A stretch of DNA of 62,110 bases, the filler included, from Sphacelaria rigidula (taxonomy: Eukaryota): the NCBI GenBank assembly GCA_964200075.2. It is 8 parts of 8 records of this genome, joined end to end, with 100 filler letters (N's around TTAATTAATTAA, not from the genome) between each part and the next. Parts side by side here need not be neighbours in the genome. Positions count along the whole stretch, not along the records: positions 38,886 to 46,560 come from CAXNAA020013828.1; 7 more parts are not named here. The stretch is one strand, 5' to 3'. Numbering within the stretch: the first letter of the stretch is position 1; the number at the start of each line of letters is the position of its first letter. The position numbers and the translations under genes were made by a program. The notes beneath the pieces were generated by a model, which was not told the DNA's origin, searched no databases, and worked only from the letters and a program-made list of their open reading frames with translations. Below, one piece after another: positions 12,301 to 50,000 of this stretch.

Positions 12301-13469
12301 ATGATGACGGGGAGAGCATGTCACCTCGGTAGGCCAAAAATGAGCCTCAGTTATTTTCATGGTCCGTTGTTGCTGTTTGTTGTTGTTGTGGTTGTTGTTG
12401 TGGTTGTGGTTGTCGTTGTCGCTGGTGTTGTTGTCGTTGTCGTTGTTGTTATCGCTGGTGTTGTTGTTGTTGTCGCTGGTGTTGCTGCTGCTGGTCCCGT
12501 GATCACGAGATTGATCTCGCTGTGTTGTAATGTGGTAATTTCTTGTTTCCGATTAATCAGTTTAGGGTATCGGTTCGGGAAAACGTACCCTCGGTTTGTC
12601 CATTTTTTGCGTTCGGTCTTCGTAACGAAACAATCCGCGAGTCTCCTCCCAGAATAAAAAGTACGGCAGCACACCAGCCACTCGTGAAGGCGAATAACTA
12701 TCGTCCCGATCTTGAGGGTGCGCAGCGGAAAGATGTGTGCAGTAGATTGACCTGGTGAAATGAATCCCGGGCCGAAATCTTCCACGAAAGAGAGAAGCGA
12801 CTCAAACGCCCTTGCCCCGTTGTGCGGTTACATACATACCTATATATCCCCTCCCCGAATCACCCCACACGTGAACTTACACCTGAGACACATATAGGCT
12901 GAAGGTGGCTCTGTCAGAAGTTTTCCACCAATTCTTACCCAACTCGACGCTACCGCCGGCGCTAGGAGCGTCAGAGCGTTCCACAGATTCCGCGGAATCC
13001 AAGCCGACAGCATCAGCAGCAACAACGATGAAACTGTCAAGTTCGGCGACTCTGCTACCGCGAGAGGGTGTGCAAGCGTGGCTCCTCAAGATCAACAGGT
13101 CGCTCGGCAGGGGAAGTGAGTTCCGAGCCGCGGAGGCGTGTATGGAGCAGGGATCACGTGAGGGCTTGAGCCTTGAAGGTGAAAAATAGGATGCACATGC
13201 CGTAAAATTCGTTTTTTTTCCGGCTATCTTTCATGTGTGCATGGCAATTTTTCTACTGGCACTCCCGACACCGTGGCGAATATGGGCGTCGGAATTGAAC
13301 GTGGGGTTCTCCTGCTCTCGTATCATTGTCTGATTTTGTGATGCGCCGATAAGACTGCGCGAGTCTCCTTCGACGTAAGTTAGTGCTATTTGATCATGAG
13401 CCTGAGCTATTTTGCGCCTGCCGTACCGTTACTATATTTGTTCTTGATATTTTTCGCTGCTGCTGCTGC

Positions 13470-13514
<45 letters not shown>

Positions 13515-13601
13515 AATATTTATCATTGCTACCATTACTAATTATTACTCTCGTCCATCATTGTCATCATTGAACTTATCATCACCACCACCACCACCAT
13601 T

Positions 13602-13633
<32 letters not shown>

Positions 13634-13855
13634 TATCATCGAACGGACACATGTTTGCCTTGCCCTGGATCGATTGATATCACACAAAATGAACAATCGC
13701 TCACAGATTTTTTCTCCATCTACCTTGCTGAGCTGCGCCACGGAAAGTTCTGGGGCGTAGCGCACGATCTCCACGTGTGCGGGGTACAACTCCCCGAAGG
13801 CATGCCGTGGGTAGGAGCCCACGAAACCTGCCTCGATCATATTTTTTACTCGAAG
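9358..13855 (+). CDS. Endonuclease/exonuclease/phosphatase (EEP; CCR4/nocturnin/PDE12-like) family protein, 3' end not found in contig
   Basis: Phase-consistent GT-AG exons 9358-9702, 9948-10105, 10558-11302, 12129-12328, 12898-13178, 13707-13855. EEP motifs VVSFNVL, DADIVCIQE, VNCHL, VCGDFNS and LDHIFYS occur in the correct order. The final PSDH motif exon was not located. Confidence 0.88.
12366..12492. repeat. (GTT)n-type intronic microsatellite. Similar tracts at ~13456-13513 (GCT/GTT), ~13580-13640 (CAC/CAT) and 46487-46560 (GTT)
   Basis: Seen directly in the sequence. Confidence 0.9.
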
Positions 13856-18900: not shown

Positions 18901-21900
18901 CGAATCCCGTGGCGGGCGGTGCTACTGTACCATAGACGCCACTGTCCCGTCTTTTACAGACGAGGGTTATGCGGTGCTCTACGTACGATACTCTCAATAC
19001 AGCCAAATTCGGTATTGTGAACGGTCGAGTGCCCGCACTAGCCAATATACACGAACGCAACTTGCAGTTCCGTAGGAGTGAGACGTCAACTTCACGTTCG
19101 ACGGTGCGCGTCTACGTTTCACTTTTTTTTTTACACTAAAACAAATTCGTCAATGAAAACGCTCAAGATGATACCTGGAAGTAACACACTATCCTTTTAT
19201 TAAACTCTGCCTCTCCACACTTCACCATACGCAACAACCGCACATCCTTTCTTATTCCTTCTTCAAATGACCTTGCCTCGTTCTCGAACTCCTTCACTCT
19301 GCTCTTGGACAGGCGGTTGACGTGAATAGATTTCATGGCGTACAATCGATCCGGCTGTTTATCACGCCGGTAGTGAAGCGAAGCGAAGCGACAAGAAAAG
19401 AAAAAAATGAAACGAAAACGACAATAGCAGGGGGGTAGCGTAATTTCAGAAATTACTTCCTTCAGCAAATTGCACGAGTCAGAGTTTGTTCAACAATTAC
19501 GGGATGTTCCAACAATTACGGGATGCAGCGTATGCTTTCATCGGGAAAGTACTCGAAAACAGAGAGTAGCTCCTGAGCTACCACCAACGTCGGAGGTCGG
19601 CCGACGATATCGATCCGAAAGGGCATCTGGCCGGCTCCCGAGGGATTCAAAAATGTCGGGGGAAAACTGTCACTAGCTGGCATTGACGCAACATCGCCCA
19701 CCGCGCACCGGTGGTCCCATGGATAGGGCTGACAAAGATTGGGTCGGAGCAATGCACACCCTGGACAATATATGGTCAATAGTTGCGACAGGCAAAAAAG
19801 GTACTGCGTAAAGTATAGGGCTCTTGCAACTATTGTCATATATATATGGTCAATAGATGCGATAGACAAAAAATGTACTGCGAACTACTACAACTACAGT
19901 CGACAATAGATGCAATAGGCCTATAATTTACGCAGTACATTTTTTTTGTGTGTTGCAACTATTGATCATATATTGTCATTGTCCAGGCAGGGTGTGGAAT
20001 AATACGAGTTCGATTCCCAGCAGATACATTTGGGACTCTTTTTCCGAACAGGTATCTGATTTCTGCCATTGAAAACGCGAGAACATGAGAAGCGAAGAAA
20101 GTTCATCGGACCAGAGTTGAAGTGGTGCGGGAGTGTTGGTCATGATCCAACCCGCGGTACCAACATACAACGTACAGTACATGCCTCTTACTAGCTTTCT
20201 CGAGTTTCCCTTCAGCAAGTGTTCCGTTATTTTGTCCACCTTAGGTGCGTCTATGCCGTGACCGCGGCTGGATCCCTCAGGGATCAGCTAATGTGCGATA
20301 ATCACCCGATCAAGCCAACGTTAACATGTGAGGCAGGCAAAAACAAAGCGGTTCCCTCGCTATACGTAATGGCCTCCTGTCTAAGTAGGTCGTGGTGCGC
20401 AGGGCGTGTACCGGGGGAGAGATGGGTTAAACCCTCGAGTCTACGGACTCATCCCAAATAAGGGGGAGGGTTGCGTGTGTACGTGTGTGTATGTTGTCAT
20501 CCCATGTATTCTGGACGCCAGTCTACACCTTTCGGTATGTGTGGGCGCATCAGCCGGGGTCACACAGAAGGAAGGCCAACACAGGAGATTTTGCTTTTAT
20601 TTTGTTTCAGTACCCCACATTCCTTCTGCGGTGCTTGCATTATTTTTTAACGCGAGAGGGATTCAGCAGTTCCTTTCCCTCGTCCATTGTAAAATAATTT
20701 TTTGTGTAACCACGACACAGTCGCTCTCCACCGTCGGGCGTTGAGGGAGAAAAACAAATTCCAGGTACTATCAATGCACCGAGATTCGAACCCACGTCAC
20801 AGCCGTCAGACGGTTTCGAGGTAACCAACTGAGCCAGAGTGTCATGACGAAGCAAACGAACAGATGTACTTTTCCGTAGGGGTTGGTCGACTGGTATACC
20901 TGCATAGTGTCTCCACCCGTGGCGCTCCCATCATTTGTCTCCACCGTTACCTCGTCCAGGTGTTCCAGGTTATTGTTGCTGGCATTGTCGAGGTTGCCAT
21001 GTTGAGAACCGCCGAGGGCCCACTTCCTCCTCACGATAGAAACCTCCCCTATGCTACCATGCCTGACGGACCATCCGCCCACGCCAGCCAAGCAATTGCC
21101 ATCAATCCATCCAAGCCACGTCAGATATGGAAGCGGAGGTGTTTTGTGAGGGCGATAATACCAGCAGAAACGCAAAAAGGGGGAGGAAAAACACGCAGGT
21201 GCGTGCGTATTTTGCAAGGGCTGGCTATGGAATGGCTTGAGCAGCATTAATAAAACTTACATCAGAAGGCGGGAACGTGAACGTCGAAATCCGTAGCTTT
21301 CCGTGAATGGCACAAGGTACGGTACAAAAACCAAGAAAAGTGGATACGAAGCTCCAAGAACGGGATGGTGGGACAACGATCCATCCGCTGATGTCCCCAG
21401 CACGGTTTGGACGACCAAATTTTCCCCACTTTTCTTGTGGGTGGGTACATTGTAAGTTCCGCAGGTGCCCCTAGTTGACTTTGGTCAAGTTGGTGTGGTG
21501 GCGATTCCATTCTTGACACACTGACAACACTACGGCATGCAAGATCGTGAGTGCATCCCTGGAAAACGCTTCACAGCTCCGACAAAGGTACATCCGGTAG
21601 TCCTGTGATACCCAATACGAACCACAGTTGCAACAGTGAGATCTTCATTTGTGAGCGCCGAAGCGCAACCGTTATGAGATGAGAATAACAGTTAGGTTGA
21701 TGTTTGAAAGAACTACTGCTGCTATGACGTCGGGTCTACAGGCATAGGTAGAGATTGACCACACATCAAATCTACACCAGCCAACAGGGATGAGCTCTGG
21801 TTTCGAAGACGGTCGAGGGAGTAGGTGCGAAATACCCCACACTAGATGTGGGGTTAGATTGAAGGTCGCTTATCCATGCTGAAGCGGCTGGGAAAAGTTC

Positions 21901-23075: not shown

Positions 23076-23801
23076 CCTGTAACCCACTTGCCTAGTTTAT
23101 GCAGGGAGTGGTGTGTTCTACAGCGTCGTTGTCAAACGCCAAACCTCAACCCTTGAAGGGCACCGAGCGGGGGGGGGGCGTACTCATTTGTTGCTTGCCT
23201 TAGTCATTTGACCATTGACCACGCATCCCTTNNNNNNNNNNNNNNNNNNNNNNNNNNNNNNNNNNNNNNNNNNNNTTAATTAATTAANNNNNNNNNNNNN
23301 NNNNNNNNNNNNNNNNNNNNNNNNNNNNNNNCCTCTTTCTCCGTGCAACCAAATCCCCCCCCCCCTATCGTAGGATGACTCACCACACCTCTCTTGCGAA
23401 AACTATTGGCTTTTTCTGTAAGTTTGTTCCTTGACAACTATTAATATATGTGGTACACCTTCAGTGCGCCTTCCTGCGGTTCCCCATACACGGTTTCCTC
23501 TACAGGTGTCGTATTTCTGCCGCAGTTCCTCTCTTTTCGGCGTTTAGCTTCAGTTCTTCATATTTTGCTCTGCTGTGTGCCCTTTCGGTACATGTAACAA
23601 TTGTCGCGATAACGCTGATTGTTATTATCACCGCAGTTTACTCTACTTCGGGTACCTCCATTTATAAATGTTGTAGTCTTCACTGCTTAATTTGCTTTTC
23701 GGTACTTACAATCCCCTGCCGAGCCCACACTACCTGCTATTACTACATCAGAACTATTGTACTCTGGTGTCTGGCGTCCATTTCTACCTCTTCAATTTAA
23801 T

Positions 23802-26655
23802 ATGGCGCAACCACAGAAAATAATTCTCCCCTCGGCTCTCCTTTCTTACAAATCTTTACGCCGTCAGCGTTTCCTTTCATCATTTCCTTCAAAACCATTC
23901 ATTCTTACTTCCCCTGTACACGAAGAAGTAAAATCCGACAGAGCTTCGGCCCTCCACTCTGGCGTCTACACGTCCCGAGACTTGGCTGCCACTGGTGACC
24001 ACGACCGCCATTTGTCCAAGACTTCCGACATGAACGATGAGTCGCTACGCGCTCGCTCTGTTGCGAAACGCACACCGTCCAAGACTCCCGATATGATCGA
24101 CGAGTCGCTACGCGCTCGCTCTGTCGCGGACCGTCCACAGTCCAAGACTTCCAACATGATCACCGAGTCGCTACGCGCTCGCTCTGTTGTGAAACGTACA
24201 CCGTCTCGGAGTTCCAACATATCTGCCGAGTCGCCACGCGTTTCCACTGCTGTGCAACACGAACCGCTCCAGGCTTCCGCCGCGGTTATCGACTCACTCC
24301 GCGCTCGCGGTGTTGACGAACGGCATCCGTCCATGCCTTCCAACGTTTTCAGTACGTCGTACAAGGGTTCCGATGCCTTACAGCGCCCGCGACGACACAT
24401 GTATCGTGAGGACACTTCTGTTCACCAGCCCTCACGCCGAACATTTTCCTCGCGTCTTGGCCGCTCAGAAGAGCCTTCCACAGGGCACCTGCCTTTAGTC
24501 ACGGCTCTTGAGCACTTGCTCCGTTCATCACCGGCTGTCATTTCTGACGGTCCGGCAACAACTGCCCTTTCACAAGCGCTTGCGGCCACGTTTCACACAG
24601 CCGTTCAACATTGAACGTCCTCAGATCATGTTCACTTTAACAGTAGTGTGAACCATCAGGCCTCTGTACCAGCGACTGCAGACCATGATGACGAACGTTC
24701 GACCTCAGATGTGCCCTTTGATTCGGATATGGGTGGTGACGACACTGTCCACCATGGTGATCGTACCACTCATGTTCATGACGTACGTGCATTGCTGTCA
24801 GGATTATCATCAACCACGGGATCCTCACGACCCAAATCTGTCGATCAGACCCGCGTGAGTTCACGGCTGCCCACGAATGCTTCGTTGACTGACATCCACG
24901 CACCCTTACGCGACAGACACAGCACTCACCGTGCGCTTCCGCCCCATCCTGATGTTGCCACTGTGCGTGCGGTGGAACGACAAATCGCAGATCTCCGTCG
25001 ATACCTGCGATCTGCTTCCATCATGGCTGACGCCCCGGCACCTTCGACTACCGCTCCCATCGCAGTCCCTACACCTACTGCGGCTGCAGACATCGATACG
25101 GATGCAGAAAGCACCCGTGTCACGCTCTCCGCCCCCCGCGCGGCGACAACTACGGCTTCTGCCACGGCGGATCAGGGTGACACCCCTGTCACGGCCGCTC
25201 CCGCGGGATCGGACCCTTCGCCGCAAGATACTCCGGCCACGAGTTCGGCTCCGGCGCCTGCACCCGATGCTTTCACGGACGACCGCCCCCTGTTGGGCGT
25301 CGAGCATTGCCCGCCGGACCTTCTTCCCCGATTCTGGTTGCGTGGACCCCACTCCGATCAGGAGCAGATTCTCAAGGAATACCGTACCCTACACCCGGCC
25401 ACGCACCCTACGCCACCCTCACCCCGCCAAACGGCAGATGACGCTGGCCATCGTCTTCTCCATGACGACCTCTCGGTACGTCTGACGCGCCAACGGCAGG
25501 CGGTCGATTCGGCGACCAGCCGCCAGTGGGCGGCTCAATGGACTCTAACTGAACGCCTCGCTGCGTTCGACCAGATGTGCGACTTCATTCGACGCGATGC
25601 ACATCGTTTGCGTAATGCACCACGGCCACGGAGACTGCCACCACGGCTCTACGCTCTTTAGAACAGGAGCAATACCTTCCTCTTCTGAGGACCACGCCGC
25701 GCGAGCCAGCGCCTGCATCTTCTGCCGCCATATCCAGCTCGGCGGAAGCACGCCAGCCCTCGCGCCCACACGCTGCTACTGCGGCTCCTACCGCCTCGCC
25801 TGCGCGCACCCCGCCATCGCCACCGCAGGACCTTCGAGCCTCGGCGCCCCCTGCCCTCACACCTTGGCTCCGCCTTCAGGGCAGCGAGCGGTCTTGGCTT
25901 TCTCGGACGCTACGCCAACTTTCGGGAAAGTACACCCGCAAGCACGTTCTCCGCGCCTCCGAGGAGGCTTGGCGCTCGCTTACTCTGCCGATCAACAGCG
26001 TGATCTTCCCTTTCCTGCAGCAAGGTGGACAACTGCCTGACAACGACCCGGGCGCTCTCACTATCGAACGACTTGTACCCTACCCAACGATCGGTACCGG
26101 GGACAGTCGCCCCGCTTATGAGACCGCCGCCGCCGCCCTCTTCGCTGCTATGCGTGCAGCTCATAACACGCTGTCGCCCGATGATGATGGGGCCTGGATC
26201 ACACCCCCCCTCGCCACCGTCGTGATGATGACGACTCTGACGACGACCCTCCCGGGGCCGCACCACGCCGTGGTCAACGGGCCCACCGCAACAACAACAA
26301 CGGTCGACGCACAACCCGGGGCAGCCACAAACGGTCTGGTAATCAGTCTTCAAGTTCATCGACTGCCAGGCACCAACAACACGCCTCAAGGCGATCCGTA
26401 CGGCCCTCACCGGCCGTCAGGCAAGTAACGCCCCCTTTGGCGGCTGCGTCTGCTCGCCCCCTAGGTCTTAGTGATAGTGATAGTGACAATTCGGCTCGTC
26501 CATTGTCTTCTACCTCGGCTCGGTCACTAGCTGCCGCCGTCGCAGCCAAACAACAAGCTGCCGCTGATAAATCTGCTTCCGATACTCGTAGAGAATCGCC
26601 TCGTGTCGCTGCAATCAAGCGTGAGTACTTACAGATGGATGTCAAGAAACTTTAG
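23802..26655 (+). pseudogene. Disrupted upstream ORF / N-terminal extension of gag
   Basis: ATG at 23802. ORFs 23757-24614 and 24648-25661 share a frame and are separated by one TGA. Open reading continues after apparent frameshifts at about 25655 and 26185 into the gag frame, with one TAG at 26653-26655. Confidence 0.55.
24015..24330 (+). repeat. 63-bp (21-aa) coding tandem repeat, ~5 copies
   Basis: SKTSDMNDESLRARSVAKRTP / SKTPDMIDESLRARSVADRPQ / SKTSNMITESLRARSVVKRTP / SRSSNISAESPRVSTAVQHEP / LQASAAVIDSLRARGVDERHP. Confidence 0.85.
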
Positions 26656-26667
26656 CATATCAAAACC

Positions 26668-27987
26668 ATGCCTGCTGCAGACAATGAGGACTCTGGTCAG
26701 TTTACATCTGCTCTCATTTCGTCAATGCGTCGAACGATGCGCAACATCCTTCAGTTGGCCGATGCAACTGGGCAACAATGTTCCGAAGACTCCGACTGGA
26801 TTGATGGATGGCAAACCCCGTTACACAAGGCTTTGCGTCGCTCAATCAACTGTCGCTCCCCTGACGTCGCTGCTTCTTTGACGCAGATTCTCGACTCCTT
26901 CTTGGACGCAATGGATCAAGATTGTGCCGGCGGGCAAACAGTGCCGCTACTATTCGGCAATTTGGAAAGGCGCATCATAAGTTGTTTTGATAAGTCTGAT
27001 CAGGCAGGCACCATCAAGCGCCTCAGTTCCTCCGCCGTGGCAATAGACGTGCCCTTTGCTGACTACCTACGCGACTTCAAGCTTTTGGTGTCTAGTGTAA
27101 CTGGTACTGGCCGACAGAATGGCCCTAGTGATACTATGTGTCAGACACATGTTCGCACTAGTATCGCTCAGCAATTTCCGACGCTGATGCCGTCTTTGTT
27201 TCCTGGCGCTTTGGCGCACAAAGAGGTGCCTTACGCCTCCGTAGACGCGATGTGGACTGCGTTTGTAGATCAAGAACATAATGTAACGCCTGCCATTCGT
27301 GGCACACAGTTTTCTTCTGGGTCTTCGCAGACCTTGCGTGCCGCATCCACGAGCACCTCCGGGTCTCGTGGACGCACTCACACTTTGTCCAGTAATACTT
27401 GGACACCCAATTCTGTCGGCGAATCGGTCATGTCTGTTCATAGCAAAAAAGACCCCGTCCGAGCAAGCTTCAACGCTTGGCCTTATTCGGCAGATACTTT
27501 TGATGACGTTTATGTCGTTCCCACAACTACTTTTGTCACGCATGACCCACATTTGTGGACCCCCTTGATTTCGCCTTCGGCTCGCAAGGATGCTTTTCGT
27601 CGCCATGCTAACACATGCATCAACTGCAATGGTACTGGCCACAGTATGCGTGACTGCCCTGAACCTTGCATCAATATTTTTTCGCTCATGAACTCTGAAC
27701 TTCAGAGCAACGGGCCGGCGTGGCGCCGATGGCAAAACCGCATGCGCAAATATCGTACACCGTCTCGCCACCATCGCCAGCCTTACCGCAATCATAGCGA
27801 CTCTCGCTCAAATCGCGACCGCCGCCACACCACCAACACCGTCTCAGGTACTCGCCATAGAGACAGTTCTTTCCGCCCTTCTCAGTCTTCGCATGGTCAT
27901 CACCAGCGAACGGGGCCGACTCACGACAACTCAAACCCCAATGCCAGAAACCCTGGTTCTTTCATGACGGATCGCAACGACCCATGA
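26668..27987 (+). CDS. gag: Retrotransposon Gag-like protein with CCHC zinc knuckle
   Basis: 439-aa ORF with C-X2-C-X4-H-X4-C (CINCNGTGHSMRDC) at 27616-27657, immediately upstream of pol. Confidence 0.8.
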   Translation: MPAADNEDSGQFTSALISSMRRTMRNILQLADATGQQCSEDSDWIDGWQTPLHKALRRSINCRSPDVAASLTQILDSFLDAMDQDCAGGQTVPLLFGNLERRIISCFDKSDQAGTIKRLSSSAVAIDVPFADYLRDFKLLVSSVTGTGRQNGPSDTMCQTHVRTSIAQQFPTLMPSLFPGALAHKEVPYASVDAMWTAFVDQEHNVTPAIRGTQFSSGSSQTLRAASTSTSGSRGRTHTLSSNTWTPNSVGESVMSVHSKKDPVRASFNAWPYSADTFDDVYVVPTTTFVTHDPHLWTPLISPSARKDAFRRHANTCINCNGTGHSMRDCPEPCINIFSLMNSELQSNGPAWRRWQNRMRKYRTPSRHHRQPYRNHSDSRSNRDRRHTTNTVSGTRHRDSSFRPSQSSHGHHQRTGPTHDNSNPNARNPGSFMTDRNDP

Positions 27988-28002
27988 CACGCCGACGACG
28001 GC

Positions 28003-31000
28003 GTGAAGTCTTCGGCGCCGCCGATAGCAGAATCGAAGACTCATCCAACACCCACCGCCGCTTGGGTGACAAAACGTTCTCACCCGAACTTTTCCACACT
28101 ATGTAGGAGATCTAATGACGGCCGTTCTTCTCGACCCCCGTCTTTATCTTCATACACACAGCGTAACCGTTGTGTTGACCCACCATCCAGCTCTATGCTT
28201 GGCTCCAGACTCGGTCCTCCGGAACTAAGTATAAATCTGAGGTGTGGGAAGACCGACCGCGGACCCTTGAGGCACAGGCTTTCTTCAACGACCGCACGCA
28301 CTGGTTGGAGCAGACTTCCTTCGACTGGTTCTGGTGTTGATGGTTCGAAACTGACCACTTCAAACCCTTCGACTCCTACCCAGCCTGATCGCAGTCGATC
28401 TTCGCGTCACCCTTCTGCCGCGAAACTACCCCGACATACAGCGTACAACACTCGTCCCCTTTCACATTTAGCAGTGCCCTTTGTACCGAGCTTGCCAGCG
28501 GACAGTCCACAAGTTTCGGCCAAGCATGCCCTGATGCTGACAACATCACCCCAACTGGACGCAGTTGCAGTTTCCCAAGAAGTTTTAGAAGTTCCCAGCC
28601 ATTTGTCACGGCACGAGAGGAAGCCTCGTAGTCATGCCCCCAAGGTCGCGCGAGCATTGACACGCCCCCCTCCCGTCAGCGGAAAATTCCGACCTCATTC
28701 TCCCCCCAAAGCGGCGACTTTGAGCTCGATGACATTGCCAGGCATCCAAGAGGAATCCCAATCGTACCTTTCAGACGGTACCGCTTCCTCCCCTGATGGC
28801 CCCAGTGGCACTTCGCAGCAATCTATTTTTAATGACGACCCTTGTACTTCCAAGCCAGTCATCTACGAGATTGATCAAAACCCTGATTCACGCTGCCCTT
28901 CACGATCGGATCAGATCCCCGCGCTGTCTACCGATACCTTTGAACCCCCCGCGGATCACCCGCCATCCGTTTTCACGGTCAGTCCGACTAATCCTCCGGA
29001 CCAATTCACGTTATCTGAACATGGCCCTGACCTCGTCGGTGGTAAGGTGTCCGTTGATCCTGCCACCTTCACTACCCGCGTAGCATTACACTGCGGCCCT
29101 TACGCCACCGCGCGCGCCGCGTGCATCTCGCTATTAGACAGCGGTAGTCCACAGACATTCATCAAAGAATCAATGTGGAATCATATAAAGCAGACCAGCG
29201 CTACCAGCGCTGCTTCCGATGTTTGCGAAATCACCACCCACCCTCGCGTTTGGGGCGGTTTCGGCGACTCGAAATCACCCTTGACGACACGAAAATCTGT
29301 TCGTCTTAGTGTGCAATTTTTCCACCATGATATACGTTCGGCTAGTCTCGCAGTCTGGGCTTACATCGTCCCTGACAGCACCATGCATCATGCTCTCCTC
29401 CTTGGCAGAGATAGTTACATGCGGTTCGACCAACGCACATACCGCACCCTTCCACCATTATCGCCTAAGTCGGCGCCTCGTCGAGAACTCCAACTAGAAC
29501 ACTTTGGTACCCTCAATGGTGCCTTAGCCTACCAGAAGATTGAGCAGGCTACCGGAGCGGCTTACCGCCTTCGGTACAATGGCAGTTCTGGTGTCACCCT
29601 TTCCGATGAGCCTCAACTCTTAAATTTTTCGCTTGTTCGCCGCAACGACATGCCTGCCCTCACCGGCCACTACCTTGCGGAATTTCTGGCTAAAGTTGGT
29701 GCGCCCGCTGGCACTGAGCATTTTGTCTCGGACGGCGAACAACTCCTGCCTCTCACAGGCCACGCTAATCTGGAACCTGGCGATGTCTTAGGCATTGCCG
29801 CGGCTCCTCTTAAGCACTTCCCTCTGGATACCTGTGTAGCCGACCCTCCGGCGCCTGATCCCACACCGCCGACTGATGGTTATGTTCACTGCGTTGATGA
29901 GCCATACTTTGATATTTTCCCCTCACCCCCGACTCGGATTTCTGCGGTGGAATCCGATCGACCCCCTGTTGAACCTCCTGATGAAGTGCTTCAACGCTTA
30001 TCGGTCGAGTCTCGGGAACATTTCCTGCAAATGTGGCACCAACTTCCACCTCATTTGCGTGATATCTATTTTGACCTACATGGTCCGGGCTGGGAGCCCG
30101 CCGTCATCCAAGAGCTACAAGATGTTCTCCTGGAATATCAGGGCAGATTTTCACGATCCAAGACGGATCTCGGGCATTGTAAAACATTGCCATTCGAGAT
30201 CACTCTGCAACCTGGCGTTTCGTCAATCTCATCTCGACCATATCGAACGAATCCCCTCCTCACCAAAAAAGTCAATCCTATTTTGGATGCATACTTAGGA
30301 GCTGGTCTGATTCAACACTCGTCTTCGCCATGGGCCTCACCCCTTGTGGTCGTCCCCAAAAATGATTGCAACACACGCATTACCGTAAATTACAAATGGC
30401 TGAATCGCGTCACTGTCATGGAAAAACTCCCCATACCTCGCATGGACGAAGTCTTCGACCCTCTCGGCGAAGGAAAAGTATTCAGCACCTTCGATCTGGC
30501 CTCTGGATTTTTCCAAAATGTAATTCACCCCGATACAGTTCCCTTGACGGCGTTCTGTACGTCTTCAGGGCTTTATGAATGGCTTCGTATGCCACAAGGC
30601 GCTGCTACCGCACCTGGCTGCTTTCAACGCCTCATGCAACGCGTTACTGACGGTCTCGAGCATGTTATCATGTATCTCGACGATGCTATCGCTTTTGACG
30701 CCTCCCCCAAGGCGCATGTTCGCACTCTACGGGAGTTCCTCTCCCGCTTGCGTACACACGACTTGAAATTGTCTCCATCCAAAGCTCGACTCGGAGCCAC
30801 TGAATTGGATTTTTTGGGACACTCTATCTCTCCTGCTGGATTGCACCCAGACACGAACAAAGTCAAGGCTATGACTCCCGAACGAGGCAAACTGGAGTCC
30901 ACTGGAACTAGAAGGCGGAGTCATAACTTGGGTTATTAAAAGGCTTCGACAGTACTTGTTCCACGTGCCTTTCCACATCTATACAGATCACGGAGCTCTT

Positions 31001-39832: not shown

Positions 39833-42800
39833 GTACGACAGCAAAGATAATCAAACCGCCGCTCTTGGGCGATGCTGCTAGCAAACGCGATGCCCAGGAC
39901 GCGACCGATCACGCGCCTGTAACGGAAGAGCAGAAGGAAGCGCCCAAGCCCTTGAAGCCGGGAAGGTTACGAAGGGATAAGGGTGGCGTCGATGCAGAGG
40001 TGAGTGCGTGAGATCGTGCCGGGGTTGGGTTCGTGTTCTGTGTCCCTTTTTCGTTGGTGACTGCTTTCCCTTGATTATTGGGTACGTGACGGCGCTCACT
40101 GATTGAATATGTTTCTCCGCTCCTGCCGAATGATCTCTCTACATGCCTACAAATACATGCGAAGTAGACACAACGACGACCTCGAAATCAATCAAGTGTG
40201 TGTGTGTGTGGATATATTTACATGTCACCCTTATTTTGCGCTGTACGTGTGCAACGCGCGGGAAGCGCCTTGTGCACTATTGTATAGTAGTCAGTATCAG
40301 AAGTTTCCAGAATCTGTAGTTGTTGTAGTTTTTGAGTTTTTGTCGAGTATTATTCTTCAATACTACTTGAAAGTGCTAGCACCGGTAGATATAGGGGGAA
40401 AGCGTAGGCCGCGCTAAAAAACTGCAGTGCCCAAGTTGGTGTTTTTGGGGACATACGGACTAGATACCCCGTTTATCAGCAGGGTGATATTGACCGTTTT
40501 TGGTCCATTAAAATCAGTTTTCCGGCTCTTCCGCAACGAAATGGTAAATGTTCAGATGAATGAATACGTGTAAAATTTTTCAAAATAAATATCGAGATCG
40601 TGTTTCCCTTCTACACTGCACAGACCTCAGTCCAGCATTTTCTGCGGATGGCCTCTTTTCGGGTTTTCTTCGCATGATATTTTCCATGAGCACTCGAAAG
40701 TGCTAGCGTCGATATTTTTGACAAAATGAGCAGACCGTGCTCAAATCACAATGCCCAAGTTGGTGTTGTGGGGGCGATACGGGCTAGATATCCTGTTTAT
40801 CAGGAGGGTGTTATTGACCGTGAATGGTCCGAAAAACATAGTTTTCCGGCTTTAGCGCAGTAGATAGGTGAAATGAAAAAAAAATCATTTTCAAGTCTCC
40901 ACTTGTATGATCGGGATCGAGTGGGTTCACCGAAAATAACGAACAGCTAGAACCTGGGGTTGCACTTTCGCAGGACCCCCGAAGATCGGTCAAGCCCGTG
41001 AGTGCAGATATTTTTTCTTTCAATATTTGTCAAGAGGATCAAAATATCTCCAGATGCCCATTTTGTGGCATCCAACAGTGACTGTGATGAGCAGTGGCAA
41101 GCGAAACAAAATTTGAAAGCTTTGGGGAAACTAAGAAATTACGAATTCTGCCTACTTCTGACGCTGACTACTGTAGCCGTCGCATTCCTTCATCTGTATT
41201 TTGTCTGACTATCTGGCTCCTTGCTTCTGTCTGTCTGTCTTTCTGTCTGTCTAGCTCTCTCTTTGTCTTCGTCTCCTCATGTCCCTGTCTCTGACCCTGT
41301 CGCCGTTTTCTGCTTGTCTCTGTTTCTGACTTTGTTTCAGTCTGACTTAGTCCTTGTCTCCGTCGCTCTGTTGACAATACCGACGTCCTCCCTTCCCGAC
41401 AAAACACAAACGCATCCGGAACCAAACAGGGGCCGTTGGTTATATCCGTCAAGGGCCCAACCAACTGCGTCGAGGTCGCCGCGGAAGCCCTCCGCCGGCT
41501 CGGGCGCGGGGCCTCCGTCCGCGATGCCATGGGCTACGTCAAGAAAGTTTCGCCGCACCGCCGACTAACTCAACAACGCAGGCTAGACCAGCAGAATGGT
41601 CCGAAAAGCCACAACCACACCACCACTACCAACAACAACAACAGCAACAACCAACAAACGGCTGGTAGTACAAGCGCTAACGATCAGCACTCAGGCCCCA
41701 AAGATGACAACTCCACATCACGGTCGGCACCGCCGCTACCTCCGGCGCCAAATCAGGCGGCCGCAGCAGCTAGGAGTGTTACTGGTTCTCCCGGGGTATA
41801 CGAAGAGGGGGGTGCAACGCAACGGCGCGGGGCGCCGCCCGCCAAGCGAGCCACGCGGCCGGCGGCATCGGCGCCGGCGGCGGTGGCCGCTCCTGCAGCA
41901 GCAGAGGAAGACAGGAAGAACAAGGCCGAGGCGTCGAAGCAGCAGGGGCGGGGAGGTGGGCAGGGAATGGGGGCGGATAGCGATAAGAGCGAAACAACGA
42001 GCAAAGCTCAAGGTAGGCTTGAAAGATCGATCTCGTCCTCATCCTCGTCCTATTCCTCTGGGAAATTGGCGGCATCGGCGTCGTCGTCGTCGAAGGAGGG
42101 TCCTCGCTCATCGTCCGGTCCGGGGAGGAATGGCGGCGGCCGCGGTGGCGGTGGCGTAGGAGTGCAGGGAGGAAGGCCGTCGAGGAAGGTTGGTCTCGGT
42201 GGTTCACGGGGGGGAACGGAGCGGAAACAGCCGCGGGAGCGGGCGGCGGCTCCAGTGGCCTCGGCCACAGCAGCAAGGGCTGCGGGAGGGGCAGCGCAGG
42301 GTCAACAACATCAGCAACGGTCTCACAACCAGGGAGAGGGGCAGCAGCAAGAACGACGGCCGCTGACACAGCCGAGCGAGGAAGGCAGACGGGCGCCGGC
42401 ACAATCAAACGAGCAAGGAAGACGGCCGCCGACACAGCCGAACGAGCAAGGCGGATGGCCGGCGGCACAGTCGAACGAGCAGGGCACAGCGACGACGGGG
42501 GCAGACACAGGAGGAGGGTGGGGGGGTGAAGGAGGGGGAGGGGGTGAAGGGGGGTGGGGTGGTGAAGGAGGGTGGAGTGGTGAAGGAGGATGGGGAGGTA
42601 AAGGAGAAGGGGGTGCAGGTGGAGGAGACACGTCGCGTCCTGCACCGCAAGAGTCGAAGAGAGGGGGTGTCGATGGCGGCAGCCGTGGTGGTGGTGATGC
42701 TAGTGAGGCCACTCCTAGGACTCACGTGACCCCGACCAGAGAGGTTTACAATCCCAGAAAGCGCCATCAGCAGGGCGGCGACCGCGGTGGTGGTGGTGGT

Positions 42801-42902
42801 AGGGTGGGACGCTCTGGCAGGGGAAGGGGGGGCAGGCAAGGCCGGAGTTCGGGCAGGGGAGGTGAGAAGTGCAAGGGAGTCGTCGATGGATATTTTCATT
42901 GA
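39833..42902 (+). CDS. 3' end of a gene: possible KH-domain RNA-binding protein with a long G/Q/R-rich disordered tail
   Basis: Exon ~39833-39999 (donor GAG|GTGAGT) splices in phase to the terminal exon 41430-42902. LVISVKGPTNCVEVAAEALRRL resembles the last strand and helix of a KH fold. The tail has RGG and GGEGGW repeats. The domain call is tentative. Confidence 0.6.
40370..40852. repeat. ~160-bp diverged direct repeat pair (intronic)
   Basis: AAAGTGCTAGC...TGCCCAAGTTGGTGTT...GTTTATCAG.AGGGTG.TATTGACCGT...AGTTTTCCGGCT at about 40370 and 40697. Confidence 0.7.
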
Positions 42903-42909
42903 AATTATT

Positions 42910-44198
42910 TCACACCCTGGATAATACATGTTTGTAATATATATATATATAGTAGTCGATCATATTGGAATTTTGCGATATATTGCCGGCGTAACATATA
43001 TCGGTACCCTTGGACTGCACACGTGTTGCGGGCCCAATATATATATATATATATATTATATTGATGTCGTTGGACTGCATACATATTGCCCGCCCAATAT
43101 ATATTGGTGCCGTAGGGTTGAACACATATTGCCCCATCAATATATATTGGGGCAGTGTGGGCGACGACATATTGCACGACCAATATAATATTAGGGTCGC
43201 ATTGGTGGGAACATATTGACCGGTCAATATATATATTGGGTCTGCGTGGGTGCCAATGTATTGGCCGTTCAATATATGTCGGATATGACAAGTATGCTGT
43301 ACACTTGAAGTTAGACCCAGACGCGGTGGATGCCGGAGCCCGTGCAGATTGGGAAAAGCTTCGAAGGGAGCCGCAGAAGTTCCCGTGCATTGCTACGAAG
43401 AGTTGTCGAATTCGTTTATATATCTCTATACTGGCCAGAAAATATGACAGCAGAAGAGGCGACCCGGTATATATCCATTCTGATACCTTTCTGGCGACCG
43501 GTACGGGGCCGCCCATCCCCTTCACAGCATGCAATATACCTTCGGTAAACATCACGATGACAGAAAGTCCGGTCCGATATTCGTCTTTTGATACCCCTGT
43601 GGTCACCGGTGCTGTGTTGCTTATACCCTGGGCAATACAAAATGTTCCAATATGATACCAATACTTAGTATTGGAGATAGCGCAAATATTGTCCTTTCAA
43701 TATATGTTGTGTCGAGATGTCCTCGGAAACATTGAAGCAACAACATGAATGTCTCGTGTCATGATCGTGAAGTGATGCATGACAATATATATATGTTGGA
43801 CATGCATTTACTCCGGGAACTAAACATTCAATATATATTGTGATTCAATATATGTTGTGCATGTCGGGCGTGTATGTATTGAAGTGTCAATATATATATA
43901 TATATATATATATATATTGAGTCGAAGCGATGCGCAACATATGGCTGCCATAATATATATATATATATATATTATATTGAGCACAGATCATGCGAAAGTG
44001 TCGTTTTCCCAGTATATTGTATATTGCACACGCCCATCGCATACCTATTGTGCAGTCAATATATATCGAACACGCTCGCGGAGAATACATTGAGCATTTT
44101 CGGCATGTGGTGATACCTCTTTCAATGGCACCCCCAAACATAAAACTGCCCACCATGATAATTCCAATACACTTTCCGATCTACATGTTGAATTATCA

Positions 44199-44230
<32 letters not shown>

Positions 44231-44648
44231 TGGAACACCAATATGTATTGTGACTGTCGGTTCCCTCGTGTATTGGCCGCCCAATGTATATTGGACGCTT
44301 CGACGCACGACATATTGAGGCGGCAATCTATGTTGGCGCTTCGGGTGTCGAGTATATTGAATTGTCAATATATATTGATCTCGTGTGGCAGCCAGTATAT
44401 TGCTAGATATTGGCGCCTTACCGCACCAACATATTACTCGCCCAATATATACTGGGATAACGCGTGCCGTGATATATTGTTCGGTCGATATGTATGCCAT
44501 GTCGCGAGCCTTGGCATCTTGATGCCACAATCTATGTTGACCTGTCTCTCGTGCGACCATATTACTCGCCCAAAATATATTGACGACCCGACGCGTCAGC
44601 ATATGGAGCGGGCAGTATATATTACATATTGTGTTGTCCAGGGTGTGC
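42910..44648. mobile_element. Non-autonomous TIR element (ATT TSD) filled with a 43-bp repeat-spacer array
   Basis: ATT|TCACACCCTGGATAATACA...TGTGTTGTCCAGGGTGTGC|ATT. Internal units are CATATTG-N6-CAATATATATTG-N17/18, e.g. starting at 43082, 43125, 43168, 43212 and through 44270-44625. Confidence 0.85.
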
Positions 44649-45209
44649 ATTCCTATCAGCATTGTGATTATTTGCATTTTAGCATCAATACGTCAATGCT
44701 TGGCATTAGCATGAGCGTTAACATCAGCGATGATACTAGCAGTAGCACTAGCTCGCACTATCACTACCGAGCACCCTGCCAAGTCTCGTTTAATTTATTT
44801 TCTGTTTTCACTCGTATATTCACTTTTCCTCCCAAGACTCCAGCCAAATGCGTCCCGGAAACAGAAGACATGTGCCGGGGGAATAGAAATCTTAACGTTC
44901 CGTCGTGACCGGCTATAGACGTACCACTTGGACCACCAGGGCGCAGCCGCGCAGTACATGAAGAGTCACGTTTTATGGGTTCTGTCGTTCCAAACGTTAG
45001 AGGGAAGGTCTTGGGAGCAAGACATTATTCGACAGGAAACTAACACGATGAAGTCCAACAGAGTGTGTGCTCATCGAGATCTCGATAGTGACGATATATT
45101 TCAGGCAGGTATTGATTGTTCTGACACAGAGATGGGTTGATCCTTGTGGGGTATGTGTAACATAGTCTTGTCTCGACTGGGGGGGCTAGGATGTGTGTGT
45201 TCGTGTGTG

Positions 45210-45805
45210 TGTGCTCACGATCATGCATGCCATAGTCATATAACCATTGATCTTGCATCCCTACAAAGCCGGGACGGAGCACGCAATTAATCCCCAGGAC
45301 CAGGCTCGCAATCAATCACCATATGCGAAGCGCCGTGATGTGTTCGGTGAGTCGCATGAAGGGTGAGCTGCATCCTGCTAAGATTGTTCGGCCCGAAGCG
45401 TACTAATTATCTTGAATATGGATGACATCCTCCAATGAGCTCTCTCATTTTCTGTTATTGCTCCTTCCAGAGACAGCCACGGCTTACACTCTGCACCATC
45501 GGTTTCTCACCATCTAAACACTGCGTAGTATGATTATTCCCTTTCCGCGGAGTTGAGGTTCTCCCACCCCCCACAAAATGATCTAGCTCGACCACCATCA
45601 TGGTTACCGCAAAAAAAAACGCACGCGCGCAAAAACAATCGGTAACCTCTTTGCCTTGCTTACGCAGAGAGTGGCGTGTTTTAGGGTGCTCTTGCCAACC
45701 GACGCCAATGGTATCCGTTCCTACACAGCCGAGACGGAGCACGCCGAGTCTGGGGTGTACTCATGATCATGCATGCCATAGTCATAAGACCATTGACCTC
45801 GCAGT
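45210..45805 (+). mobile_element. Most complete copy of the G-run-associated repeat, with internal direct repeats (A-B-core-B-A)
   Basis: CCTACA.AGCCG.GACGGAGCACGC at 45260 and 45720. GATCATGCATGCCATAGTCATA..ACCATTGA at about 45219 and 45765. G-runs lie on both flanks. Confidence 0.75.
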
Positions 45806-46485
45806 CTGGGGGGGGGAGGGAATGAAAATGTCGTCCCTTTGTCGATAATTTGGTCAATGACGAGTACAACATCAGGGTTACCGTTCAAGGTGTTGTGCGA
45901 TATTTACCTCGGTACTGTAGTATGTGTCTTGATATTGTAGGATATTATATTTGGATAGTATGTTTTCGATAGATGATTTCTAGATGTATCCTGTTGCTGT
46001 ATTCTGTTCTGAATATCTCTGATCCGAGAGTTGAAACGTCTCAGATACGGATAGATTTCTAATGAACAAACATCGGATAGGCCGGGTGGTGCTGTCTACC
46101 TAGGTTGACTTCCTTTCGTTTCCCAGCATCATCTTCTTGTTCCTTCACCGAGCACGCGCTGTCAATCAAGGGCAGACACCTATCATTGAATACCCCCCCC
46201 CTCCCCCCCCCCCAAAAAAGAAAAAAAAAATATGTGTTTGAATAAAATCATAATGAGAATAAAACAAGAATAAAAGAAAAATGAAAAGAAAATGAAGAGA
46301 AAATAAAACGAAGAAACTAAAAGTGGATGAAATAAAATGGAATGATATTTTAAAAAATATAACAAAGGCCGGAGGAATCTGTTTGCTGCTCCCAGCTCTG
46401 GGAGCGAGTGCCCAAGATACGGTCGTTGGTATTGAACGCCCTCTCCTTTTCTTTCGTTCTTTTCAGTTTGGTCTGCTCGTGGTTT

Positions 46486-46559
<74 letters not shown>

Positions 46560-47038
46560 GNNNNNNNNNNNNNNNNNNNNNNNNNNNNNNNNNNNNNNNN
46601 NNNNTTAATTAATTAANNNNNNNNNNNNNNNNNNNNNNNNNNNNNNNNNNNNNNNNNNNNCCCGGCTTTGTGGGGATGCGAGGTCAATGGTCCTATGACT
46701 ATGGCATGCATGATCATGAGTACACCCACACACGGGTTTATGGCGTCATGACTAGCTTGTGCTTCGCCCGCGTCAGAGAATATGATGCTTTCGAAAAGCA
46801 AAACCGTATGCATCGTCCGTCGGCACTTTCACCCACATTACCCCAGCAGCGTGACATCGGCTTCATGCAGCTCGTGTAGGGTGTAGCCCAGCGCGCTACT
46901 CGGATGCTTTTTTTGAGTCGACGCTGTGGTGTACTAGGCATGGTTGAACACGTTGCACAGGAAGCGTAGCGCCAAGCCCGATGTGTACCTTATTGCTGGC
47001 GAACCATTTCGCCGGAAACGTTTTGCGTACGTCATCAG

Positions 47039-50000
47039 GTCAGTGGCATCGAGGGCAACTTCCGCACGACATGCGAGTTGGTGATGTCCGTCCTCCGCGA
47101 GTCTCGAGACAGCCTGATCGCCATGCTAGAAGCCTTCGTACACGACCCCCTCGTGTCCTGGAAACTCCTGGGCACCAACAACCGTCAACCGTCACAACAG
47201 ACGACCTCCGGCGAAAACAACATGGGCACCACCAGTAGCGCCTTGAGAGGGAAGACCGAGCCCCCTACTGCGCCGTTCCACTCCACCAGTAACATGGAGC
47301 GCATACCGGTGCCTCCGGCCGTGGCTTCTCCCCCACGGAGTGAAACACGTCTAGGCCAGGCCGGCGGAGGCACCGTAGCGCCCGTAGGATCCACGGCCCA
47401 GATTGAAGAGCAACAAGCCCCCCCACCGCCAACGCCGCGTCTTGGTCCCGTAAACGGCAAGCCGCAGTGGCAGAATGTTCCCACGAGAATCGGTCCTGGG
47501 AACGGCCGGACGGGAAACTGGGGTGCTCCGCCGCAGCCGGCAGCGGGGGCTGCGGCGGGGGTGGCTGGCGTTGGAGCCCCCCCTGGGGTAGTACCTAACG
47601 GGGGCACTGGGTACGCGAATCTTGGCGCGCCTGTTGCGGGAATGGGTGAAGTTGGCTGGAAAGCGGGGGAGTCGACCTCGGAGGTTGGAGGGGCGGTGGC
47701 GGCAACGGGTATGCCAGGAGCAGCGCAGGGAGACGTTGGCGGGGCGGCGGGGGCAGCGACCACGGCAGCGACGGCGAGGTACCCCGACGATCGCAGTCAC
47801 GCCTATACATCACGGGGAGGTGGGGGTGGGGCTAGCCACGCTCCACCGGTTGTCCGGGGTCCGAGGGGAGGGACATCAATTCAAAGAGCATCTTTGCTGC
47901 AGGGTATGACCCCACTACAGCCGGTGCCTGAGTTTGTCCGCGGGATGGGATGGAGGGAATCGGATGGGGAGGAAGGGGAGGGGGGAGGGGAAGGGGAGGG
48001 GGAAGGGGAGGGGGAGGAGTCAATGACCCCTCCAGGAGCTATGGCGCTACAGGCGCCACCACCACATGCGGCGCCCACGGGGACCACGACGTCAACCCAT
48101 CTCGTGCCTCGGTTCGATCCGCAGCCGGGGCAGGAACAACATCGAACAGTGTTCGAGCCTCAGCTCAGTGCACCGCCGGTAGAAGAAGGTGAAACGCTCC
48201 TCGCGCCGCCGCTAGTGGATCCGGAGGATTCCCGGCAGTCGCACTTCAACCCGCACCTGGCGCAGCAAGGTCAGCCGATGCTCGAGCCCCAGTTCAACGC
48301 AACGTCGGTACAGCAAGATCATGTTCAAGTCCTGCTTGAGCCACAGTTCGATGCGCCTCCGGCACAGCAGCAGGGAGATACACTGCTCGCACCGCAGTAC
48401 AATGCCCCGCCACTACTTGAACCCCAACTCAATCACCAGCCTGTTGGACACCACGGTCAACAACCGCTTGAACCTGAGTTTAATGGACCACACTTCCAGC
48501 AGCAACAGCAACAACATCAACAAGGTCAGTACAACCCGCGCATGGTGATGAGTATGGACCTCTCATATCAGCCGATGGTATCGCACCACGACCTGGCGGC
48601 GCAGCAGCAGCAGCAACTTCAACAACAGCAACTGCTTGAAGCTCGCTTTACCAACGGGCAGCCGGGAGAGCATCCCCAAGAGTACCAGCCGCTTGAGCCA
48701 CAGTTCGGACCCACACCAGTGCGAGGCGAAGAGCAAAAGCAGCGCATCCTTGCCCAACATCAAAATGGGAGAGGTGCAGGCATGGGTGGACATCGACGTG
48801 GAGGTGGTGGCGGCGGCGGCCGTGGTAGTATGACGCGCGGTGGAAATGGAGAGCAGAGGTGAGAACGAGAAGGATACAGAGTGGGCAAATCATGATTTGT
48901 TGAAATCACCACCACTGTTGAGTTACGGTGAATTTGTAAACTTTGACTTCCCCTCAACGAAAAGCATGAGCGAAGAAAAACCCATGTGACGCGAACTGTG
49001 AAGCGTCACCATGAAGAAGTGAGCAAGAGGAAGGTTGGCATAGCATTGCCTTCTGTTACGCTAGAAAACTGTGGGCGTGTCCATGCAGCGTAAGCGGTAG
49101 GACGTGGACGCTATGCGCTCATGCACCATCAGGCGTAATGCTTTGTCGTATCGTCCGGCCCAGGACGCATAATTTACTTGATGTCTGAAACAAATGTCAA
49201 GGGAGAATTTACCCGAGGATGTGTCGCTCACCTGTTTCTTTTTTGTTTGTGTCCTTTGTTTGTGTCCTTTGTTTGTGTCCTTTGTTTGTGTCCTTTGTTT
49301 GTGTCCTTTGTTTGTCGATGCACGCCACGAACGTCGCACTCCGCAGGAGCAGCCGGCCGAGAAAGGCTAAGGTTCCGCCTAGCGCATCGGTGACCATCCA
49401 AAGAAACAGAACACCATCCATATCTATCGGTGAGGGGCCAAACAACGCAGAGGATGAACATGATCCCATCGATGATTTTGAGGAGGAGGAGATTGTGGCA
49501 GCGGCGGCAGCAGCGGCGGCAGCGGCGGCGGCGACCGGAGGCGGGGTCCGCCCCAGCAAGCCAAACAGCTATATCCAGCAGAGCTCAAGCTTCAAGCCGA
49601 ACATGCATCTTCAGATGCAGGCTCTTTCGGCCAGGCACAACGGGAGCGCTGCCATGTGCGTTGCTACAAAAAATGAATACATTCTTGGAAGTGTAGGGAG
49701 GCCTGTCGGGTTTTTTTTTTGAAGCCGTACTACGAGTATGTCTTGATGTCTTGATGTGTTGAACTGCCGTTCGTTTCTCGATTGCAGCTTACTATGTCCT
49801 TTTCATTTCCCTCCCTTATGGAGTCTCCTTCAGCAAGTTTTGTCGGTTATACACCTTGGGTGTGTCTATCTTGTGATGACTACGCTTGGTACACCATGTG
49901 CTGCTGTTACAATATGTGGCAGTCGTAGCGGCTACGAAGTATGTCATGATACCCCATGTGTGTACGATACAGGGTTGACTCAATCTTTACTCGCACCCTG

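Follow-up and report, generated by a model that had tools for sequence, protein, structure and literature searches.

The DNA analyzed here, referred to as the window, is a 62,110-nt stretch from the genome of Sphacelaria rigidula (GenBank assembly GCA_964200075.2), composed of eight parts joined end to end with filler letters between them. In the part taken from CAXNAA020013828.1, positions 42911–44647 hold a 1,737-base element with inverted ends (sequence read over 42700–44900). This element is one copy of a very abundant, non-autonomous cut-and-paste DNA transposon of the terminal inverted repeat (TIR) type, and about three quarters of it consists of 43-bp units in which two boxes are kept while the letters between them have drifted. 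The original prediction, made from the sequence alone, had described the locus as an array of two fixed boxes and two variable spacers of fixed length carried inside a eukaryotic TIR element, and had offered two explanations: a phased protein-binding lattice, which it held to be more parsimonious, or a precursor of small guide-like RNAs.

Structure of the Element

The repeat unit uses one 6-bp half-site three times: ATATTG, then CAATAT six bases on, then ATATTG immediately after. The last two half-sites join as a 12-bp palindrome, which is followed by a GC-rich filler of fixed length. The consensus is ACATATTG..CAATATATATTG, with boxes of 8 and 12 nt, spacers of 6 and 16–17 nt, and a total unit length of 42–45 nt. 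About 20 units of the form ATATTG-N6-CAATATATATTG-N16/17 lie in the same orientation, mostly 42–45 bp apart. The half-site pair ATATTG-N6-CAATAT, with up to two mismatches, has 23 matches in the window, all within 42980–44618, against 1.81 expected, and none of 100 shuffles reaches this number. The palindrome CAATATATATTG, with at most one mismatch, has 11 matches in the window, all within 43095–44582, where chance would supply 0.10. Exact half-sites number 71 in the window (37 ATATTG and 34 CAATAT), and 44 of these fall within the 1,737 bases of the element.

A repeat search collects a 27-nt unit in 17 copies; of the 16 start-to-start intervals between them, 9 measure 42–45 bp. The longer intervals are of three kinds, namely palindromes that have grown to (AT)13–16, one truncated unit, and a core that is free of units (43284–43685). 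Expansion of the palindrome box into (AT)13–16 tracts is seen at five places. Tandem Repeats Finder reports, in the left arm, only 2.7 copies of a 43-bp period and 2.5 copies of a 45-bp period; the low copy counts arise because the spacers have diverged. Read forward, ATATTG-N6-CAATATATATTG fits 17 units with at most three mismatches in 18 positions. Three reverse fits exist, all of which overlap forward units, and at the same threshold neither form was found in the window outside the element. Since the N6 half-site pair and the 12-mer are both palindromic, the polarity of the unit rests only on the unequal fillers of 6 and 16–17 nt.

The TIRs are 32 and 33 nt long, and 28 of 33 aligned columns agree between the left end and the reverse-complemented right end. 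The first 11 nt, CACACCCTGGA, are identical at both ends, and the termini read CACAC (...GTGTG). The left TIR (42911–42943, + strand) consists of this terminal motif, a half-site-like hexamer and an AT-rich, palindrome-like end. The right TIR (44616–44647, − strand) overlaps the last unit of the right array. At both ends, the hexamer after the terminal motif resembles the half-site and a palindrome-like AT box closes the TIR. The candidate target-site duplication is ATT, with its left copy at 42907–42909, one unpaired base (42910) before the CAC terminus, and its right copy at 44649–44651, one base (44648) past the other terminus.

Between the TIRs, the units fall into two arrays of the same orientation (+ strand). 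The left array (42962–43283) has seven units, starting at 42980, 43023, 43083, 43126, 43169, 43213 and 43258. The intervals between them are 43, 60, 43, 43, 44 and 45 bp, and the 60-bp interval holds an (AT)n-expanded palindrome box. The unit-free core of about 400 bp (43284–43685) contains no open reading frame (ORF) with a family match, and the depth of the family, described below, is high there as well. An irregular zone on the + strand (43686–44184) follows, with degenerate units at 43686, 43876, 43939 and 44045, lone palindrome boxes at 43829 and 43846, and three (AT)n-expanded boxes. The right array (44185–44624) has a period of 42–43 bp, with units at 44185, 44227, 44270, 44312, 44354, 44397 (truncated), 44431, 44474, 44516, 44559 and 44601. 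The repeat zones next to the termini thus span about 320 bp on the left and 440–960 bp on the right. The element has no coding capacity and is non-autonomous: four ORFs that span it gave no Pfam match at E up to 0.01, and no protein relative was found for the 177-aa ORF across the left arm.

These observations bear out the structural part of the original prediction. The units that it quoted at 43082, 43125 and 44311 read exactly as written, and the array is real, with its 23 box-pair matches all inside the element. The units keep one orientation in both halves, as it had claimed (17 forward and no independent reverse fits), and the inverted termini agree with its description of a eukaryotic TIR element.

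Abundance and Variation of the Family

Contigs from sequencing runs in which the flanks of the element occur with 0–9 differences were aligned to positions 42300–45300 at an identity of at least 80%. Three of these are DNA runs (X1, X3 and X4) from two studies; the runs are labelled as an alga. In X1, the depth summed over contigs is 24–26 in the flanks and 3,392–57,506 inside the element, with 13,336 contigs aligned. The corresponding values are 28–36, 3,259–59,049 and 14,461 contigs in X3, and 7–14, 1,689–23,776 and 12,082 contigs in X4. In all three DNA runs the jump in depth lies in the bins that contain 42911 and 44647, and the single exception within the element is the bin 43916–44016, which was skipped as a simple repeat. 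The coincidence of the jump with the TIRs identifies the locus as a member of a TIR transposon family that is non-coding and very abundant. In each of the three DNA runs, contigs cross both junctions, so that the insertion at this locus is present in all of them.

The family is diverse. By identity to this copy, the X1 contigs comprise 672 at 99% or more, 2,073 at 95–99%, 4,907 at 90–95% and 5,684 below 90%. Members vary in length by unit-sized steps, with skips of 83, 83 and 78/82 bp and one repeat-back of 45 bp. Some members are without positions 43843–44354; these 512 bp are skipped, with 17 other letters in between, in 2, 2 and 1 contigs of X1, X3 and X4, respectively.

Searches beyond these runs yielded no further copy of the element. 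Among metagenome contigs, 25 loci carry the dual-box pattern with one match each, but they have at most three loose box pairs and align to the element over at most 27 nt. Given how few and how short these are, we regard them as chance matches. Viral contigs gave no match to either the dual-box or the TIR pattern, and contigs of prokaryote genomes gave none to the TIR pattern or to a 21-nt core word. A blastn comparison of the element with phage records gave no match, and a comparison with the rest of the window gave only matches to AT runs and the terminus shared with a second element at 19755–19996 (see below). A word search of the literature for the terminal motif and the box returned only primer coincidences among the matches listed, and both are absent from five text supplements of a paper on Ectocarpus transposable elements (PMC12477816). 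The family is possibly already held in transposable element libraries such as Repbase or Dfam.

Conservation of Boxes and Spacers

Conservation was measured on an alignment of 17 regular units. The majority letter occupies 300 of 339 box cells (88.5%), 48 of 102 cells in the short spacer (47%), and 126 of 286 in the long spacer (44%). A plain satellite or minisatellite diverges evenly along its head-to-tail unit; the conservation observed here is uneven. We considered CpG decay as the cause of the contrast between boxes and spacers and rejected it, as the observed/expected CpG ratio stands at 1.01 for the window as a whole and at 1.15 for the long spacers.

The spacers are not independent of one another. 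Long spacers share 6.94 letters, compared with 6.23 after shuffling (standard deviation 0.13), and none of 2,000 shuffles reaches the observed value; neighboring long spacers are alike in up to 12 of 17 letters. Because the spacers are mutually related, the array is best described as a tandem duplication that has decayed everywhere except in its boxes and in the distances between them. The earlier view that nearly all spacers differ therefore stands as far as divergence goes, but they are not unrelated. Similarly, it had been argued that ordinary satellites do not decay in this way: the spacers are in fact diverged tandem duplicates, although the retention of the boxes is indeed unusual.

A comparison of this copy with the family majority bears on the same contrast. 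The spacer positions listed have a single majority letter throughout the family; at position 44467, for example, it accounts for 38,788 of a depth of 39,144 in X1. Among the best-supported 40 of 354 differing positions, 32 differences between the family majority and this copy lie within the element, and six of the 32 fall on box positions. In all six the family majority restores the canonical box, and in none does it break one. This is the pattern expected if source elements are selected for intact boxes and the inserted copies then decay.

A Second Element, the Candidate Target-Site Duplication and the Superfamily

The window contains a second, foldback-like MITE (miniature inverted-repeat transposable element) of another family (19755–19996, 242 bp), which is 73% self-complementary over 219 nt. 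It has internal 41-nt direct repeats and no 43-bp array, and it is otherwise unrelated to the main element. Its terminus, however, is identical to one end of the main element at 14 of 14 positions and to the other at 18 of 20, and a CAATAT half-site directly follows these 14 nt. Since the half-site adjoins the terminal motif in both elements, the letters that are repeated in the arms are also part of the end definition in two families. The MITE is probably moved by the same transposase as the main element or by a related one.

The target-site duplication was sought in both elements with flank lengths of 2–10 and offsets of 0–2, giving 27 combinations. A length of 3 bp with an offset of 1 is the only combination without a mismatch, and this holds for each of the two elements, with ATT...ATT around the main element and AAT...AAT around the MITE. 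The chance that a random 3-mer matches in this window is 0.016. An 8-bp duplication fits at 4/8 and 5/8 letters, which is low for copies that most contigs of the family match at 80–95%. Both triplets conform to 5'-ANT-3', with two insertions as the sample and the extra base counted as part of the element. Counted in this way, the four ends start with T, G, G and C, and the second letter is C.

The superfamily can be named only tentatively. We place a PHIS-like origin ahead of the other candidates while holding it short of probable. The ATT and AAT flanks resemble PIF/Harbinger (PHIS) duplications, and Harbinger mobilization uses a second DNA-binding protein that recognizes a subterminal motif (PMC9710019). 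An ANT duplication characterizes the Pangu group of PHIS transposons (PMC4482050), and an AWT duplication is listed for Harbinger2-1, Harbinger2-2 and Harbinger2-N1_Ec32 of Ectocarpus (PMC12477816). The termini differ, however. Pangu TIRs usually begin with AG or GG (PMC4482050) and the Ectocarpus Harbinger2 termini read AGAGA...TCCCC (PMC12477816), whereas the ends here start with T, G, G or C followed by CACAC, and no partner of the DDE_Tnp_4 type was seen in the window. For Harbinger TIRs, a start in A or G would be expected.

A hAT-like origin is possible but doubtful. The arms of hAT elements such as Ac/Ds and Hermes likewise carry many copies of a short motif in both orientations, which an oligomeric transposase binds multivalently (PMC10368747; PMC3260210), and hAT-2_Ec32 is listed with the same CACAC-GTGTG termini (PMC12477816, supplement 1). 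No hAT partner was seen in the window. We know of no hAT subterminal motifs arranged in a strict 43-bp lattice.

We consider membership in CACTA/En-Spm (CMC) unlikely. The family shares with it the CAC start, hundreds of base pairs of closely spaced short repeats at the termini, and a candidate 3-bp duplication, and non-autonomous CMC derivatives are kept mobile by subterminal cis sites (PMC8978399). In contrast, the terminus here is CACAC and not CACTA or CACTG, so that only CAC is common; the 3-bp duplication is flush with the terminus in CACTA elements and offset by one base here; and our units all run in one direction with a strict 43-bp phase, while those described for CACTA are mixed direct and inverted copies in mirrored zones (PMC8978399). 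No partner of the Transposase_21 type was seen in the window. An origin in some other superfamily is as possible, and as doubtful, as a hAT-like one.

Genomic Surroundings

A TGA codon at 42900–42902 closes a low-complexity frame of 518 codons 8 bp before the element. This stop codon had been noted earlier and lies where it was placed, but its actual use is doubtful, and so is the conclusion drawn from it, that the element is probably within a 3' untranslated region. A contig of run X6, which is an RNA run only by our guess, matches 42563–42862 without a difference and then continues with 121 letters from outside the compared stretch 42300–45300. At this point, around 42861–42863, the window reads AG|GTGAGA, like the start of an intron. 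If 42862 is a splice donor, the element would lie in an intron and not in the 3' untranslated region; we take this as a weak hint. Among the runs recorded as RNA, none contains the stretch. The X6 contigs that align to the element itself differ from this copy by 11–99 letters. They therefore come from other copies and are uninformative about this locus or about small RNAs.

The 518-codon frame gave no family match, and a neighboring frame of 630 aa gave no usable match in the protein atlas. Within the low-complexity frame, positions 42346–42625 hold coding-frame tandem repeats of 33/66 bp and 18/54 bp. The bin 42502–42602 reaches 6–20 times the flank depth in the DNA runs, which indicates that this G-rich repeat occurs elsewhere too. 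On the other side, positions 45128–45300 and beyond hold an extremely abundant repeat beside a (TG)n run, the loose ends of which are rich in poly-G. The summed depth there is 0.1–2.8 million in the three DNA runs (23,000–246,000 in X6), compared with about 12–36 in the DNA-run bins just before it. This repeat is presumably another high-copy element or a satellite.

Further features of the window are set out here for completeness. A degenerate retrotransposon occupies positions 23691–30939 (+ strand), where the DNA is GC-rich and its GC skew negative. It is recognized by long frames with in-frame stops and by matches to a zinc knuckle (zf-CCHC, E 5e-4) and a reverse transcriptase (RVT_1, E 6.6e-23). 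A full-length 5S rRNA gene lies at 14273–14391 (+ strand; Rfam RF00001, 59.5 bits). A Piezo-like exon at 46186–46608 (− strand) matches Piezo_TM1-24 with E 2.6e-7, just above the cut-off. About 400 bp from it, a frame at 46970–48862 (+ strand) carries, at residues 24–65, a C-terminal piece of a PI3/PI4-kinase domain just below the cut-off.

Discussion

Most likely, the structure is of an ordinary kind and not a guide-RNA array. We propose that the boxes form a phased lattice of candidate docking sites for the transposase of an autonomous partner or for an accessory protein, and we consider this reading, which is also the option favored in the original prediction, to be probable. The half-sites would be docked by a DNA-binding protein of the partner. 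This could be the transposase or, comparable to the Myb-like protein of PIF/Harbinger elements, an accessory factor. The protein may coat both arms in many copies at intervals of roughly four helical turns, and, with a period of 42–45 bp, these copies would be aligned along approximately the same side of the helix. Such a coat could raise the local protein concentration at the termini and help to pair the two ends for excision, and it would let a derivative that has no ORF compete for the partner's protein.

Several known systems offer precedents. In CACTA ends, subterminal repeats, direct as well as inverted and set close together, take up several hundred nucleotides (PMC8978399). A subterminal motif of 9 bp is recognized by the Myb-like protein of Harbinger3_DR (PMC9710019), contact between the Hermes octamer and its left end is made via several BED domains (PMC10368747), and Lemi1 proteins bind both the TIRs and the subterminal motifs of the Emigrant MITE (PMC1636448).

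A number of points weigh against this proposal. The window has 122 ORFs of at least 110 aa, and the 102 of them that were scanned include no transposase, no binding protein and no autonomous partner, the other 20 being other-frame overlaps of the retrotransposon (12), of 42023–43392 (5) and of 47188–48545 (3). The original prediction had likewise seen no partner protein. Protein binding, the identity of the binder and a role in synapsis or end pairing are therefore points that we infer. The units are oriented alike in both arms (17 forward, 0 independent reverse), unlike the mirrored zones described for CACTA (PMC8978399). The right repeat zone, at about 960 bp, extends far beyond known end-recognition needs, and members lacking 512 bp of it exist, which suggests that much of it may be a dispensable minisatellite. 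A period of 43 bp corresponds to 4.1 turns and is not an exact helical multiple, so that the phase drifts along the array. The restoration of the box at six of six positions rests on the best-supported 40 of 354 differing positions. The depths inside the element (3,392–57,506 in X1, for example) are summed over contigs and are not copy numbers, and they support no finer statement than very many copies. The duplication is known from two insertions only, and its offset of one base is odd. Finally, once the two elements are brought into the same orientation, their terminal base varies between T and C on one side, whereas the other side has C.

The most serious rival is that the arrays are a passenger minisatellite without a role in transposition, grown by slippage or unequal exchange, in which the boxes merely look conserved through renewal by (AT)n slippage or through replication errors driven by hairpins. 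We consider this unlikely, but several observations fit it. The family changes length in unit-sized steps (the skips of 83, 83 and 78/82 bp and the 45-bp repeat-back), the palindrome box has expanded into (AT)13–16 at five places, the spacers descend from one another by duplication and divergence, and the right zone combines great length with partial dispensability. Tandem or satellite arrays are also known inside CACTA elements (PMC8978399), and among the entries of the Ectocarpus table are DNA families whose termini contain tandem repeats (PMC12477816, supplement 1). The likeness to such arrays, including those in the rows KDZ and DNA9-N3 of that table, extends to head-to-tail units in a TIR element and to copy-number variation among members (PMC8978399; PMC12477816). 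The difference is that the units here are conserved unevenly (88% against 44–47%) and that the conserved part recurs at the termini. Slippage can renew a run of AT. It cannot renew the CAAT/ATTG letters on either side of that run or the ACATATTG box, which stands apart, and it is these that stand at 88% against 44–47% for the filler. Moreover, the family majority restores the canonical box at all six box positions among the best-supported 40 of 354, and the half-site also stands beside the terminal motif in a second family that has no 43-bp array. A very unlikely alternative is that the family is a dispersed cis-regulatory or chromatin module, host-captured or incidental, whose lattice is occupied by a dimeric host factor that binds AT palindromes. 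A dense, phased lattice of palindromic sites would suit such a factor, and this copy lies within or beside a putatively transcribed gene region. In its outer letters, the palindrome is similar to dimer sites of the homeodomain type. However, the regularity of the boxes belongs to the family majority, that is, to the source elements, while several boxes at this locus have decayed; this points to selection that acts during transposition, as opposed to selection on inserted copies. The analysis yielded no sign of a host factor.

The remaining alternative treats the array as a precursor of small guide-like RNAs, a eukaryotic analogue of the TIGR array, and we regard it as highly improbable. Copies in transcribed introns would be cut at the boxes into RNAs of about 43 nt, whose two variable segments would pair with targets and whose fixed GC-rich segments would thereby guide a partner protein or a silencing factor; we give this scheme hardly any credence. 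If true, it would be a eukaryotic, transposon-borne counterpart of tandem guide arrays. There is a superficial likeness to TIGR arrays, in that some 20 units repeat a pair of alternating conserved boxes and a pair of variable segments that keep their length (PMC12045711). TIGR arrays have two alternating repeats of 8–12 nt and two spacers of about 9 nt (up to 12), they yield processed RNAs of 36 nt, and the systems carry box C/box D letters and an adjacent Nop-domain gene in prokaryotic or viral hosts (PMC12045711). Here the spacers are 6 and 16–17 nt, and the unit measures 43 nt against about 36 nt; the consensus contains UG and lacks a CCA anchor, whereas TIGR repeats carry both CCA and UG (box C/D) (PMC12045711); and the family is dispersed, whereas TIGR arrays occupy a single locus. 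No Nop-domain ORF was found among the 102 of 122 ORFs scanned across the 62-kb window, and the window is eukaryotic, as shown by the retrotransposon (RVT_1 and zf-CCHC), the Piezo-like exon and the 5S rRNA gene. We therefore reject membership in the TIGR class on the grounds of spacer geometry, partner gene and host.

As RNA, the arms do fold better than shuffled sequences (z −2.3 and −4.2), but the pairing predicted in these folds joins boxes that belong to distant units, and there is no pattern of one hairpin per unit. No Rfam family reaches its threshold; the best match, which lies in an (AT)n tract, scores 30 bits where the gathering score is 81. With E values of up to 1 admitted, Rfam gives 13 weak matches to microRNA models, all far below their gathering scores, of which 10 lie in the (AT)n-expanded zone 43844–43990, two at 44177–44250 and one in the left array at 43082–43159. 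Thousands of contigs carry the same spacers, which have arisen from each other by duplication and divergence. The original prediction had itself taken identical spacers in all copies as a sign against a guide role, and the spacers are indeed fixed in the family, with 12,082–14,461 contigs per DNA run aligning at 80% or more over the spacer-bearing stretches. Together with spacer lengths of 6 and 16–17 nt where TIGR arrays have two of about 9 nt (PMC12045711), this leaves its second option unsupported.

Conclusions

The present analysis describes, in an alga, a family of non-autonomous DNA transposons that is very abundant and in which a single 6-bp half-site recurs in a 43-bp lattice of unusual regularity, a finding of modest importance. 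It also carries a warning: arrays of two boxes and two variable segments can arise in the arms of eukaryotic transposons, and a guide-RNA reading of such an array needs both evidence from RNA and a gene for the partner. Should the ANT duplication be borne out, the family would add to the elements of Pangu/Harbinger2 type that have been reported for brown algae. Under the docking-site reading that we prefer, the array bears a footprint of selection, in which boxes persist amid drifting filler and the majority sequence of the family comes closer to the canonical form than this decayed copy does. This footprint leads to a testable prediction as to which domain of a partner protein binds which letters.

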